This document shows positions 851-60,491 of a DNA stretch of 64,000 bases, piece by piece; the first letter of the stretch is position 1; each line of letters begins with the position of its first letter. The stretch covers positions 758-64,757 of the forward strand of contig CATNDJ010000009.1 in NCBI GenBank assembly GCA_950097265.1, read 5' to 3'. The stretch is from an uncultured Oscillibacter sp. GTDB lineage: Bacteria > Bacillota > Clostridia > Oscillospirales > Oscillospiraceae. The notes under the pieces were generated by a model. It did not search any database, had not been told where the DNA came from, and saw only the letters and a list, made by a program, of their open reading frames with translations. Position numbers and translations under genes: made by a program.

Positions 851-1522
851 ATGAAGCCTCGACACGAGTGGAAGCACGAGATTACCGCCGCCGACCGCCT
901 GGTCCTCGCCTCCCGCCTCTCCGCAATCGCCCGGCGGGACGTCCATGGGCAGAACGGCCGCTACGAGATACGCAGCCTGTATTTCGACGATCCCCGGGAC
1001 ACGGCCCTGCGGGAGAAAATCGACGGCGTGGCCAATCGGGAAAAATTCCGAATACGGTTTTATGGCGGCGACGCCTCTTACATCTGCCTGGAGAAAAAGA
1101 GCAAATGGGACGGCCTGTGCGGCAAGCGCTCCGTCCTCCTCAGCGCCCAGGAGGTCCAGGATCTCCTGAACGGCGACCTGGGCTGGATGCCGGACAGCGG
1201 CAGGCCCCTGGTCCAGGAGCTCTATTGGAAGATGAAATCCAACGTTCTACGGCCCAGGACCATTGTGGATTACACCCGGGACGCTTTCGTCTTCCCCGCC
1301 GGAAACGTGCGGGTCACCCTGGATTACAACATCCGTACCGGCCTGGGGTCCACGGATTTCCTGAATCCCGCTGCCGTCACCGTCCCCGCCGGGGCCGCTC
1401 CCAGCATTCTGGAGGTAAAGTGGGATGAATTTCTTCCCGATATCATCCGGGAAGCCGTGCAGCTTCCGGGGCGGCATACCTCCGCCTTTTCCAAATACGC
1501 GGCCTGCCGCATTTATGGATAA
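851..1522 (+). CDS. VTC-domain (polyphosphate polymerase / TTM-fold) protein
   Basis: SD AAAGGAG then ATG 851; motifs RHEWKH, IRSLYFDD, REKFRIRFY, LEKKSK, VDYTRDAF, VRVTLD, ILEVKWD, FSKY. The ORF-track extension to 335 is spurious. Confidence 0.9.
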   Translation: MKPRHEWKHEITAADRLVLASRLSAIARRDVHGQNGRYEIRSLYFDDPRDTALREKIDGVANREKFRIRFYGGDASYICLEKKSKWDGLCGKRSVLLSAQEVQDLLNGDLGWMPDSGRPLVQELYWKMKSNVLRPRTIVDYTRDAFVFPAGNVRVTLDYNIRTGLGSTDFLNPAAVTVPAGAAPSILEVKWDEFLPDIIREAVQLPGRHTSAFSKYAACRIYG

Positions 1523-1543
1523 CAGAGAAAGGAAACGATTATT

Positions 1544-2218
1544 ATGACTACTTTTCAGGACATCTTCAAATCCAGCTTTCTGGAGAACGTCACCAGCGTC
1601 AGCCTCCTGGACATGAGCCTGGCCCTTATCCTGGCCTTTGGCTTGGGGCTGTTCATCTTCCTGGTTTACAAGAAGACCTTCACCGGCGTCATGTACTCCT
1701 CCGGCTTCGGCGTGACCCTGGTGGCTTTGACCATGATTACCACCATGGTCATCCTGGCGGTCACCAGCAACGTGGTGCTGTCCCTGGGCATGGTGGGCGC
1801 GCTGTCCATCGTCCGCTTCCGCACCGCCATCAAGGAGCCCCTGGATATCGCCTTTCTCTTCTGGGCCATCGCCGTAGGCATCGTCCTGGCGGCGGGGCTG
1901 ATTCCGCTGGCGGTGTTCGGAAGCGTGGTCATCGGCCTGATGCTGCTGATCTTTGTCAACCGGAAGTCCCGCTGCGACCCCTACATCGCCGTCCTCCAGT
2001 GCGACGGCCAGGAGAGTGAGACCCGGGCGGCGGAGTTCCTCCGGCAGAACACCCGCCGCTGTGTGGTGAAGTGCAAGACCGTTCAAAAGGACGCGGTGGA
2101 ACTGAATCTGGAGATTCGCCTGAAGGATGAAAACACCGCCTTCATCAACGCCCTGGCAGACCTTCCCGGCGTCCGCAGCGCGGTGCTGGTGAGCTACAAC
2201 GGGGACTACATGGGGTGA
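1544..2218 (+). CDS. DUF4956 membrane protein (MgtC-like TM region plus C-terminal soluble domain)
   Basis: SLGMVGALSIVRFRTAIKEPLDIAFLFWAIAVGI hallmark; several TM helices. Confidence 0.9.
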   Translation: MTTFQDIFKSSFLENVTSVSLLDMSLALILAFGLGLFIFLVYKKTFTGVMYSSGFGVTLVALTMITTMVILAVTSNVVLSLGMVGALSIVRFRTAIKEPLDIAFLFWAIAVGIVLAAGLIPLAVFGSVVIGLMLLIFVNRKSRCDPYIAVLQCDGQESETRAAEFLRQNTRRCVVKCKTVQKDAVELNLEIRLKDENTAFINALADLPGVRSAVLVSYNGDYMG

Positions 2219-4047
2219 GCCCGATGTCGACTCACAAATACATCGATAAAGTCTGCGCCGCGGCCCTGGTCCTCTGCCTTTTGCTGACCGCCGCTTTTAT
2301 GCGCGGAGAAGCCCTGGGCATCCGGCCCGCCGCGTCGGTCATGGGCTACGAGACCCGGCTTTTTGACACGGGACAGGTGCATACCATCGACATCGTTATG
2401 GACAATTGGGACGGCTTCCTGGAGACCTGTGAAAACGAAGAATACGCCCAGTGCGCCGTGGTGATTGACGGCGAGGCATTCCAAAACACCGCCGTCCGGG
2501 CCAAAGGCAATACCTCCCTCTCCATGGTCTCCGCCATGGACAGCAGCCGCTACAGCTTCAAGCTGGAATTTGACCACTATGACAGCGGCAGGACTTACTA
2601 TGGCCTGGATAAACTGAGCCTGAATAATATCATACAGGACACCACCTATATGAAAGACTACCTCACCTATCAAATGATGGGGGCCTTTGGGGTGGACGCG
2701 CCGCTGTGCAGTTACGTTTACATCACGGTCAACGGCCAGGACTGGGGCCTGTATCTGGCGGTGGAAGGCGTGGAGGATGCGTTTCTCAGGCGAAACTACG
2801 GCGGTGATCCCGGTGAGCTCTACAAGCCGGACAGCATGAGCTTCGGCGGCGGACGGGGCAACGGCCGGGAATTTGACATGGAGAAATTCGTGAACTCCGA
2901 TGAGGAAGATACCCAAGGCCACTTTTCTCCCGACGGCGCGCCTCCCTCCCCGCCGGATGGCGAATCATTCAGGCAGAACAGTCCCGGAGAAGGGAAAAAA
3001 GGCGGCTTCGGCGGCGGGCCCGGAGGCGGTATGGGCGGCGACGATGTGAAACTCAGGTACATTGACAGCGACCCGGACAGCTATTCCAATATCTTTCAAA
3101 ATGCCAAAACGGACGTCAGCAAAGCGGACCAAACCCGGCTCATCGCCGCCCTGAAGGCCCTCAGCGAGGGCGAAAACCTGGAAAATGTCCTGGATATCGA
3201 CGAGGTTCTGCGCTATTTCGTGGTCCACAACTTTGTCCGCAACGGAGACAGCTATACCGGCTCCATGGTCCACAACTACTACCTCTACGAAGAGGACGGC
3301 CGGCTTTCCATGATTCCCTGGGATTACAACCTGTCCTACGGCACCTTCCAGGGCGGAAACGCGGGCAGCGAGGTCAATGCCCCCATCGACTCTCCTGTCA
3401 GCCGCGGAGACAGCCGCCCGATGGTGGATTGGATCTTTGACAGCCCAGAGTATACGGAGCTGTACCACCAGTACTTCCGGGAATTCCTGGAGACTGTGGA
3501 TCCGGCGGCGCTGATAGACGATGCGGCGGCGCTGATTGCCCCCTATGTGGAAAAGGACCCCACCTGGTTCTATACTTATGCAGAGTTTGAGACCGGCGTG
3601 GAGACCCTTCGGGAGTTCTGCCGCCTCCGGACGGAGAGCATTGCGGGACAACTGGACGGTCTCATCCCCTCTACAGAGGCCGGACAGGCGGCAGACGGCT
3701 CCGCCTTGGTGGACGCCTCTTCTATTACCCTCTCCGATATGGGCACGATGAATCGGAGCGGAGGCTTTGGAGGCGGCGGACCGCAGTTCTCTCCGACCGG
3801 CGGCAGTCCGGAAGAGCCAGGCTCCCCGCCTGACCAGGAGGGTGCGGACATACCGGCAATGGAGATCCCGCCCACAGAAGTTCTGCGGCAGGGATTCCCC
3901 GAGTGGCCCGGAGAAGGCTTCCGGGGATTTCCGGGTGAAGCCTCCTCCGCTGCAAACGGAAGCGCTTTGCTGCTAACGGCAGCGTGCCTGACCGTCCTCT
4001 TGGCAGGAATTATAACCGCCTTTTTCTACCGGCGCAGGAAAAGATAA
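2215..4047 (+). CDS. CotH-family atypical protein kinase, membrane anchored
   Basis: RAKGNTSL, SFKLEFD, KLSLNN, YLAVEGVE, LYKP, NGDSY, HNYYLY, IPWDYNLSYG; hydrophobic N-terminus and C-terminal TM plus RRRKR; GTGA overlap with the upstream stop (ATG 2224 is an alternative start). Confidence 0.9.
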   Translation: MSPMSTHKYIDKVCAAALVLCLLLTAAFMRGEALGIRPAASVMGYETRLFDTGQVHTIDIVMDNWDGFLETCENEEYAQCAVVIDGEAFQNTAVRAKGNTSLSMVSAMDSSRYSFKLEFDHYDSGRTYYGLDKLSLNNIIQDTTYMKDYLTYQMMGAFGVDAPLCSYVYITVNGQDWGLYLAVEGVEDAFLRRNYGGDPGELYKPDSMSFGGGRGNGREFDMEKFVNSDEEDTQGHFSPDGAPPSPPDGESFRQNSPGEGKKGGFGGGPGGGMGGDDVKLRYIDSDPDSYSNIFQNAKTDVSKADQTRLIAALKALSEGENLENVLDIDEVLRYFVVHNFVRNGDSYTGSMVHNYYLYEEDGRLSMIPWDYNLSYGTFQGGNAGSEVNAPIDSPVSRGDSRPMVDWIFDSPEYTELYHQYFREFLETVDPAALIDDAAALIAPYVEKDPTWFYTYAEFETGVETLREFCRLRTESIAGQLDGLIPSTEAGQAADGSALVDASSITLSDMGTMNRSGGFGGGGPQFSPTGGSPEEPGSPPDQEGADIPAMEIPPTEVLRQGFPEWPGEGFRGFPGEASSAANGSALLLTAACLTVLLAGIITAFFYRRRKR

Positions 4048-4100
4048 AACCGGACCGCCGTCCCCTCTTGAACGGGCGGCGGTCTGGTTCTATTCTTTTT
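4048..4100 (+). terminator. Intrinsic terminator of the VTC operon
   Basis: aaccggaccgccgtccc...gggcggcggtctggtt followed by a T-rich tract. Confidence 0.7.
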
Positions 4101-59755: not shown

Positions 59756-59784
59756 TTGCATATTTTTTCCCGTTGTGCTATACT
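59756..59784 (+). promoter_or_regulatory. sigmaA promoter of the OLE RNA
   Basis: TTGCAT-17-TATACT, ending about 7 nt before the 5' closing-stem strand. Confidence 0.75.
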
Positions 59785-59791
59785 GTTTTCC

Positions 59792-60448
59792 GCTAAGCGG
59801 CGGCGCAGTATTCTAGTCAGATCTGCCGTTTCCTAGGGAGGGCCTAAAAATCCTCTGAAGGGCACATCGATGAAACCCGTGGTGCCTGCTTGATACGCCC
59901 AGTTTTGGGTGGGTGCTGGGGGGAAGCGCGTGGAATTTGCGCGCTTGCGGACTCAGGGCGTCTACCAATGGCATGGTCTATCCGACCCTGTTTCCGTGGA
60001 GACCTGTTCTTGTGCGCGGACGTACTCCCATCGTGGTATTTCCGGCCCGCGTACGAAACAGATTGTGAACCTGCAATGCGGTGCATCGGTCCCTCGGGGC
60101 CGTAACGCTGTGTGCAGCCGTAGCCTGCCTTGAGTGGGGCGGGTGGATCAGGGAACTACAGGAAGAAGCCCCGGCCAGGGCGGCTTCCTGATCGCCCTTT
60201 GAAACCCGTTTTGCAAAAGAGGCTAAAGAAGCGGACGGACTGTGGTGGAAATCACCTAGGCTGTCCTGACGGGGCAGGAAAAGGATTGCAGTGCGGACTA
60301 AGTGGCAATCGGGTAGCACGGACGGGCGACGCCGCGCCGGAGCGCCGAACGGGAAACCGCCCCCATCGGCAACGAGGGGTGCGCTCCGGGGAAATCCAAC
60401 CCGTACCTAAGCCGTAAGATTTACTTTTTCTGCCGCCGCCGGCTTAGC
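59792..60448 (+). ncRNA. ole: OLE RNA (ornate, large, extremophilic RNA)
   Basis: About 657 nt with no credible ORF; 5' GCUAAGCGGCGGC pairs with 3' GCCGCC..GCUUAGC; blocks I recall from OLE RNAs (AGUAUUCUAGUCAG, GGGCCUAAAAAUCC, GGGCACAUCGAUGAA, UGCAGUGCGGACUAAGUGG); directly upstream of oapA-dxs-tlyA-nadK. Confidence 0.88.
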
Positions 60449-60491
60449 TCTAAAAAAACAGAGGCCGTCTCCGGCCTTTCGGGAGGTTCCT

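Follow-up and report, generated by a model that had tools for sequence, protein, structure and literature searches.

A three-gene operon encoding VTC, DUF4956 and CotH proteins

The DNA analyzed here (the window) is a stretch of 64,000 nucleotides from an uncultured Oscillibacter sp. (contig CATNDJ010000009.1 of GenBank assembly GCA_950097265.1), and our subject is a three-gene operon near its left end. The three genes encode a soluble enzyme of the VTC family, a membrane protein of the DUF4956 family and a membrane-anchored protein of the CotH family. These family assignments had been made in an earlier inspection of the letters alone (the sequence-only reading), and all three were confirmed by Pfam matches above the thresholds, which are 23 bits (curated) for PF09359 and 30.6 bits for PF16316. 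The features are as follows, in window coordinates.

851-1522, + strand: VTC gene, encoding a soluble Vtc4-like triphosphate tunnel metalloenzyme (TTM) of 223 aa, a putative polyphosphate (polyP) polymerase; Pfam PF09359, E 3.5e-36, 125.4 bits
1544-2218, + strand: DUF4956 gene, encoding a membrane protein of 224 aa; Pfam PF16316, E 6.6e-11, 42.7 bits
2224-4047, + strand: CotH gene, encoding a CotH-family kinase-like protein; Pfam PF08757, E 3.9e-62, 211 bits
4048-4100, + strand: intrinsic terminator, formed by a GC-rich hairpin of 16 bp and a T-rich tract after it
656-850, + strand: intergenic and promoter region shared with a divergent regulator; Shine-Dalgarno sequence GAAAGGAG at 836-843
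1-655, - strand: 5' part of an XRE/HTH_3 regulator with a transmembrane (TM) segment; Pfam HTH_3, E 1.1e-12; the gene leaves the window at its left end

The VTC and DUF4956 genes are separated by 21 nt. For the third gene, the homologues point to the ATG at 2224 (M4 of the listed open reading frame [ORF]) and not to the GTG at 2215 as the start; therefore, a gap of 5 nt, rather than an overlap of 4 nt, follows the DUF4956 gene. Good Shine-Dalgarno sequences precede both the VTC gene and the DUF4956 gene. RNA folding of the terminator hairpin (4048-4089) gave a free energy of -31.4 kcal/mol and a z score of -4.77, with none of 200 shuffled sequences being equally stable, and a U tract follows the hairpin. 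Spaced by only 21 and 5 nt and sharing one terminator, the VTC, DUF4956 and CotH genes form an operon, and the layout described in the sequence-only reading (three tightly linked, co-directional genes with one terminator) was borne out by the coordinates and the strength of the hairpin.

A scan of positions 656-850 with the sigma-70 consensus found no site. The divergent XRE/HTH_3 regulator directly upstream of the operon is 363 aa long in the full contig, and the gene that follows the terminator is yebC in convergent orientation. Proteins identical to those of the operon occur in mouse-gut metagenome-assembled genomes, and among the named homologues the closest carry the annotation Oscillibacter sp.

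Gut sequencing runs of uncertain type, possibly RNA, contained fragmentary contigs from related strains at 90-95% identity. Two of these contigs span the VTC-DUF4956 junction (X4, 1214-1600; X9, 1472-1665), which is compatible with co-transcription of the two genes and too weak to prove it. The depth of the contigs had a sharp peak at window positions 1740-1873, over the DUF4956 motif region; the peak probably reflects many related species with the same near-invariant stretch and not a higher expression.

VTC and DUF4956 form a conserved core with an exchangeable outward-facing domain

The operon was compared with a set of 85 loci made up of 80 Clostridia loci and 5 plasmid-collection records. 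The Clostridia loci are the best 80 of at least 598 relatives found when species-representative genomes were scanned for the DUF4956 motif. Third genes were counted by core-domain searches that were checked with Pfam, because an iterated CotH search drifts via shared anchors and low-complexity linkers. The counts were as follows.

61 of 85 loci: third gene is CotH (including one fragmented copy and one locus ordered CotH-VTC-DUF4956)
20 of 85 loci: third gene is a Cthe_2159 beta-helix protein (PF14262)
0 of 85 loci: CotH and Cthe_2159 both present
3 of 85 loci: VTC and DUF4956 present, third gene not found
1 of 85 loci: DUF4956 without VTC (Hymenobacter, beside a TolC gene)

The co-occurrence proposed in the sequence-only reading thus holds for VTC with DUF4956 in 84 loci, spanning Clostridia, Bacilli and Actinomycetota, and for CotH as the third gene in most of them. 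The adjacency of VTC and DUF4956 in 84 of the 85 loci is an arrangement far beyond chance, and chance adjacency is therefore effectively excluded. The order VTC-DUF4956-CotH was also found in Planococcus and Nonomuraea, and in Paenibacillus the VTC-DUF4956 pair is accompanied by a Cthe_2159 lipoprotein.

Every third gene that was found belonged to the CotH or the Cthe_2159 type, and its product was secreted or anchored. Among the Clostridia loci, the CotH-type and beta-helix-type proteins share a homologous N-terminal anchor (MSTHKxIDxIC, a TM segment and then LFMNG..LG), and they also have in common a linker of low complexity with a TM helix at the C terminus. The shared N-terminal anchor suggests a docking element. 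Since the beta-helix loci are scattered over at least six separate blocks of the DUF4956 tree, the distribution suggests that the ectodomain has been swapped repeatedly. VTC and DUF4956 are the core of the module, and the outward-facing domain is swappable. In the sequence-only reading, polyP served as the phosphoryl donor of CotH. That proposal is weakened by the 20 loci in which a beta-helix protein replaces CotH behind the same anchor: since the replacement is not a kinase, donor supply is not the general reason for the VTC-DUF4956 pair.

In one related genome (L013, 1688-3781), the CotH gene is broken into three ORFs beside intact VTC and DUF4956 genes, probably as a pseudogene or through a sequencing error. 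On a plasmid of Hymenobacter volaticus (Bacteroidota; L084, 7896-9979), a DUF4956 gene without a detectable VTC neighbor is followed by genes for a TolC-family outer-membrane protein and a protein sorted by the type IX secretion system, and a two-component system lies near the DUF4956 gene.

The VTC protein appears Vtc4-like in predicted fold and catalytic residues

The VTC protein consists of a single VTC domain (the Pfam match spans residues 4-219 of 223) without any hydrophobic or TM segment, and neither an SPX domain nor the DUF202 three-helix TM domain was found in it. An AlphaFold2 model, built on a shallow alignment (A4), had a confidence score (pLDDT) of 80.2. When the model was compared with the PDB by Foldseek, the 13 best matches were all Vtc4, Vtc2 or Vtc3 (best E 6.7e-12, query TM-score [TMq] 0.71), and the other TTMs among the listed matches, such as triphosphatases and class IV cyclases, reached at best an E value of 2e-7 with TMq values of 0.41-0.51.

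In alignments based on hidden Markov models, R67, R69, K83, Y141 and R143 of the VTC protein align to R264, R266, K281, Y359 and R361 of Vtc4, which bind triphosphate and are needed for polyP synthesis in yeast. All five residues were invariant in a sample of 15 sequences from related loci. At the level of conserved motifs, R4-H-E-W-K8 (R4-x-E-x-K8) fits R196/K200 of Vtc4, E188-V-K190 fits E426/K428, and S214-K215 fits S457/K458. Vtc4 K458 is the residue that tells the active Vtc4 from the inactive Vtc2 and Vtc3.

The VTC protein might also act as a TTM triphosphatase, a cyclase or a signaling enzyme rather than as a polymerase, in which case the module would be a sensor or signaling device. 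Most of the characterized bacterial TTM/CYTH proteins are triphosphatases or cyclases, and the ACT-like domain of DUF4956 described below suggests ligand sensing. On the other hand, the Pfam family of the protein is VTC and not CYTH, Foldseek places Vtc4 about five orders of magnitude ahead of the triphosphatases and cyclases, and K215, the match to the Vtc4 K458 that is absent in the inactive Vtc2/3, appears to be conserved. We regard a non-polymerase role as very unlikely. Judged by predicted fold and catalytic residues, the enzyme appears to be Vtc4-like and not a generic triphosphatase or cyclase.

DUF4956 has weak similarity to the MgtC superfamily

Each of the 59 aligned DUF4956 homologues matched PF16316, and the family comprises 5,597 clusters at 50% identity (E ≤ 0.001). 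The AlphaFold2 model of the window protein (pLDDT 88.7) begins with a short amphipathic helix, continues with five TM helices and ends in an alpha/beta domain. Counts of lysine and arginine in each loop gave an N-out/C-in topology; therefore, the RFRTAIK loop and the ACT/ferredoxin-like C-terminal domain are predicted to lie in the cytoplasm. RFRTAIK (R-x-R-x-x-x-K) in this predicted cytoplasmic loop is the most conserved basic cluster of the protein. In the motif SLGMVGALSIVRFRTAIKDP, G82, G85 and R91 are invariant and most of the remaining positions are at least 90% conserved.

A Foldseek search with the DUF4956 model matched only the C-terminal domain, to NikR-C, the C-domain of Mycobacterium tuberculosis MgtC (2LQJ; target TM-score [TMt] 0.63) and ACT domains, and returned nothing informative for the TM domain. 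No VTC chain was among the 50 listed PDB matches, although structures of the VTC complex, such as 7YTJ and 8I6V, were in the library. The NCBIfam MgtC/SapB model matched DUF4956 with an E value of 5.6e-7, far under its cut-off, and the Pfam MgtC model matched 30 of the 59 homologues (best E 1.1e-5), also below threshold. These signals are weak but consistent, and they point to DUF4956 as a distant relative of the MgtC superfamily. Like the MgtC/SapB/YhiD proteins, to which its sub-threshold matches are colinear, DUF4956 is predicted to have a 5-TM N-terminal domain and an ACT-like cytoplasmic C-domain. It differs from them in having its own Pfam family, the near-invariant motif SLGMVGALSIVRFRT and an obligate pairing with VTC. 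No biochemical study of DUF4956 was found in the searched literature.

Some long DUF4956 matches had the appearance of VTC-DUF4956 and DUF4956-CotH fusions (P0130, P0216 and P0173). They contain garbled, frameshifted stretches and are artefacts that confirm adjacency only. A DUF4956 variant on a short contig (P0219; L092, 1349-2374) has an N-terminal extension of about 120 residues, and no VTC gene lies upstream of it.

The CotH protein is predicted to face outward

The CotH protein has a hydrophobic anchor at each terminus. The N-terminal anchor consists of MSTHKYIDKVC and a TM segment, and the C-terminal TM helix is followed by an RRRKR tail. The CotH domain aligns to CotH of Bacillus cereus (5JD9) in two blocks, with about 80 inserted residues of low complexity between them. 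The two Asp residues of B. cereus CotH are matched by D345 and D370, and their 23-residue spacing equals that of D228/D251 in Bacillus subtilis CotH, in which mutation of these residues abolishes activity. Both D345 and D370 were 100% conserved among the 53 homologues covering both positions.

Of the 67 full-length third-gene products examined, including both CotH and beta-helix types, every one had a hydrophobic segment at the N terminus, and 48 had a TM helix and a basic tail at the C terminus. Because of these segments, the CotH domain is predicted to be extracytoplasmic and outward-facing. The hydrophobic segments and the topology together predict the placement given in the sequence-only reading, namely a cytoplasmic VTC, a membrane-embedded DUF4956 and an extracytoplasmic CotH. 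A biochemical study of a secreted bacterial CotH was not found in the searched literature.

Two stretches of the CotH protein are of low complexity and rich in Gly, Pro, Met and acidic residues. The first (residues ~205-285, window 2827-3069) is the insert between the halves of the CotH domain, and the second (residues ~505-575, window ~3730-3940) forms a juxtamembrane linker. At both sites the homologues have variable repeats, such as MPEMGE in P0130.

CotH is a spore-coat Ser/Thr kinase in Bacillus, the host of the operon is a spore former, and cotJ and yunB lie a few kilobases away; the operon could accordingly be thought to phosphorylate the spore coat during sporulation. The window protein and the Bacillus kinase (5JD9) have in common the fold and the catalytic/metal-binding Asp residues (D228 and D251 in B. 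subtilis). However, the window protein is membrane-anchored and predicted to be extracytoplasmic, has the insert of about 80 residues and has no CotB/CotG-type substrate gene nearby. Its hydrophobic anchors at both ends and its basic tail set it apart from a soluble coat protein that is free in the mother-cell cytoplasm. In addition, the trio occurs in the non-sporulating Streptococcus and Bifidobacterium as well as in Nonomuraea, and no sporulation gene recurs beside it in the 80 Clostridia loci. A role in the spore coat is effectively excluded. Nothing was found to link the operon to spores or to mineralization, both of which the sequence-only reading had put forward.

Genomic context and relation to pel and surface-glycan loci

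The pel operons of Gram-positive bacteria contain the trio as accessory genes. In Streptococcus intermedius, the cotH, "polyphosphate polymerase" and DUF4956 genes are SIR_1594, SIR_1593 and SIR_1592, and a preprint on this organism stated that the trio does not occur outside pel operons. That statement does not hold, being contradicted by the Clostridia loci. The trio is already known, through a bioinformatic description as a Gram-positive pel accessory set, which is the only prior description we found. Together with the phenotype-poor S. intermedius knockouts, this weakens the remark of the sequence-only reading that it knew of no experimental description of the trio. The S. intermedius-type set resembles the window operon in having cotH, a VTC-type polymerase gene and a DUF4956 gene side by side. 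The window operon differs from it in gene order (VTC-DUF4956-CotH) and in having no pel operon or DUF4832 gene within 10 kb, and its CotH protein ends in a TM anchor, compared with an FN3 domain in the pel accessory set.

In the full contig, the 10 kb on each side of the operon contain housekeeping and sporulation genes, cotJ and yunB among them, and by Pfam assignment none of the genes called there is a Pel, DUF4832 or other polysaccharide-synthesis gene. Across the 80 Clostridia loci, no Pel or polysaccharide-synthesis gene family recurs. Elsewhere the module does stand in such surroundings. On a Planococcus plasmid it lies with genes for a GT2 synthase, a HEAT protein and a glycosyltransferase, in Pseudobutyrivibrio it lies inside an exopolysaccharide cluster, and in one further locus a beta-helix protein gene, the VTC-DUF4956 pair and GT2/GT4/PMT_2 genes are side by side. 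The Planococcus locus is of the same type as NELoc-2 of Clostridium perfringens and similar loci, in which VTC-domain proteins and CotH are encoded with a glycosyltransferase, a HEAT-repeat protein and a deacetylase; the window locus has none of these polysaccharide genes. In a distant VTC-DUF4956-CotH locus (L089-L091, 8165-11177; DUF4956 38% identical), the trio is followed on the same strand by three unannotated ORFs and a gene for an SLH-domain (S-layer homology) protein.

These surroundings raise the possibility that the module modifies a surface glycan or exopolysaccharide. CotH would then be a glycan kinase, the beta-helix protein a lyase, epimerase or binder, and VTC-DUF4956 the supplier of a phosphoryl or energy source across the membrane, with polyP as an intermediate and not the end product. 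The pel operons, the Planococcus and Pseudobutyrivibrio loci and the GT2/GT4/PMT_2 locus agree with this explanation, as do the Cthe_2159 proteins, which are similar to PL9 lyases and have cellulose and polygalacturonic acid as ligands. Against it, glycan-synthesis genes do not recur within 10 kb in the window and most of the 80 Clostridia loci; apart from the trio, an antisense shadow ORF of DUF4956 and the two-component pair described below, no gene family is found in more than 16 of the 80. Pel production was also unchanged in the S. intermedius deletions. We know of no CotH-family member that phosphorylates a sugar. Overall, glycan modification as the main function appears quite unlikely.

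Immediately upstream of the module, 42 of the 80 Clostridia loci have a gene pair for a histidine kinase and a response regulator of the OmpR family, as does Paenibacillus; about half of the related loci thus have a two-component pair of this type at the position that the XRE/HTH_3 regulator has at the window operon. A Pho-type identity of these two-component systems was considered and not adopted: PhoB/PhoR- and PnpS-type models were among the best matches, all of them below the curated cut-offs.

The upstream regulators bear on another explanation, in which the VTC enzyme makes or hydrolyzes polyP inside the cell, DUF4956 is an MgtC-like regulator of phosphate or energy balance, and the third protein, linked to the other two by co-regulation alone, has a separate surface role, in which it uses ambient ATP or does no more than bind. 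Such a homeostatic function would fit the MgtC-like sequence and architecture of DUF4956, the reported action of MgtC on the F1Fo ATPase and PhoR, the OmpR/PhoB-family systems with their Pho-type matches (all sub-threshold) and the view of the S. intermedius preprint authors, who leaned to cytoplasmic polyP. It leaves unexplained, however, the constant extracytoplasmic nature of the third gene product, the retention of one anchor by two unrelated ectodomains behind VTC-DUF4956 and the repeated placement of the module in exopolymer loci. We consider this explanation rather unlikely.

Outside the neighborhood of the operon, positions 59784-60455 of the window (+ strand) encode, in full length, the already known large non-coding RNA OLE (Ornate Large Extremophilic; Rfam RF01071, 393 bits, E 5e-112).

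A possible envelope module for polyP

The explanation that we tentatively prefer, at somewhat less than even probability, is a self-contained envelope module in which a Vtc4-like TTM enzyme and an MgtC-like DUF4956 protein form a core at the membrane, a third anchored protein faces outward, and polyP is made and passed outward. In the first step, the cytoplasmic VTC enzyme would polymerize phosphate from ATP into polyP, as the retained Vtc4 residues suggest. In the second step, DUF4956, probably as an oligomer, would bind the enzyme or the nascent chain through its cytoplasmic R-x-R-x-x-x-K loop and ACT-like domain and would move the polyanion outward, a role proposed solely by analogy to VTC. 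In the third step, the anchored ectodomain would use, bind or process polyP on the surface of the cell or within the matrix. This ectodomain is here a CotH kinase fold with intact catalytic residues, and in a quarter of the relatives it is the polyanion/carbohydrate-binding Cthe_2159 beta-helix. The proposed module follows a logic similar to that of the synthase-dependent exopolymer secretion systems, in which the synthase is cytoplasmic, the conduit lies in the membrane and the modifier is extracytoplasmic, and the recurrent embedding in exopolysaccharide and surface-glycan loci elsewhere counts in favor of an envelope module.

A more specific form of this proposal is a synthase-dependent polyP secretion machine, in which a soluble Vtc4-like polymerase is docked on an oligomeric MgtC-like DUF4956 pore, polyP is threaded to the cell surface, and interchangeable anchored ectodomains (a CotH kinase fold or a PL9-like, polyanion-binding beta-helix) use or hold it there. 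PolyP at the surface could be a phosphoryl donor where ATP is scarce or an anionic partner of cationic matrix polymers such as Pel. We hold this specific form to be possible, if doubtful.

One of the known systems closest to such a machine is the yeast VTC complex (Vtc4/Vtc3/Vtc1). The window enzyme shares with it the Vtc4-type tunnel fold with triphosphate-binding residues and a coupling, here genetic, to a membrane protein with conserved basic residues on the cytoplasmic side. It differs in lacking SPX and the DUF202 three-helix TM domains, which in the yeast complex form a pentameric channel. The catalytic protein is a separate, soluble polypeptide, its membrane partner is MgtC-like and unrelated to the VTC channel, with five TM helices and an ACT-like domain, and the module has an additional third, extracytoplasmic subunit. 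The sequence-only reading had called the operon a split bacterial VTC machine. The enzyme half of that description stands, in that the enzyme appears to be Vtc4-like with polymerase residues; the channel half does not, as DUF4956 is MgtC-like and has no match to the Vtc1/Vtc4 TM channel, and the term is therefore an analogy and not a homology.

Several observations weigh against the proposed export of polyP. At the enzyme, the equivalents of Vtc4 E426, S457 and K458 are motif matches only: a segment profile of the VTC C terminus, built for these residues, gave no alignment to Vtc4 and only spurious SecA matches, and the C-terminal 15 residues of the model are of low confidence. No biochemical study of any bacterial VTC-domain protein was found in the searched literature. 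At the membrane, DUF4956 resembles the VTC channel (DUF202) in neither sequence nor structure, the MgtC proteins are known as regulators and not as channels, and the long DUF4956 matches included no genuine VTC-DUF4956 fusion. In S. intermedius, none of the single deletions of the trio genes eliminated aggregation or the production of Pel, a small drop in aggregation was confined to the DUF4956 mutant, and the authors suggested that polyP might stay in the cytoplasm.

The established bacterial route from nucleotide triphosphates to polyP is through PPK1 and PPK2. These cytoplasmic enzymes have folds unrelated to that of the window enzyme, and no membrane or extracytoplasmic protein is dedicated to them as a partner. 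A polyP export route in bacteria was not found in the searched literature. If the secretion-machine proposal is true, the operon would represent a third, PPK-independent bacterial route to polyP and the first dedicated polyP exporter outside eukaryotes. The module also bears on the question of how a secreted kinase fold, as in CotH, would find its phosphoryl donor in the extracellular space. The functional core can be narrowed to VTC-DUF4956, since the part exposed to the outside changes while its anchor is conserved, and studies of protein interactions thereby gain a concrete starting point. The module is widespread, with at least 598 species-level genomes carrying the exact DUF4956 signature motif, and both the export and the donor questions are testable in culturable carriers, including Streptococcus, Planococcus, Paenibacillus and Butyrivibrio. 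The module may be how some bacteria place polyP on their surface.

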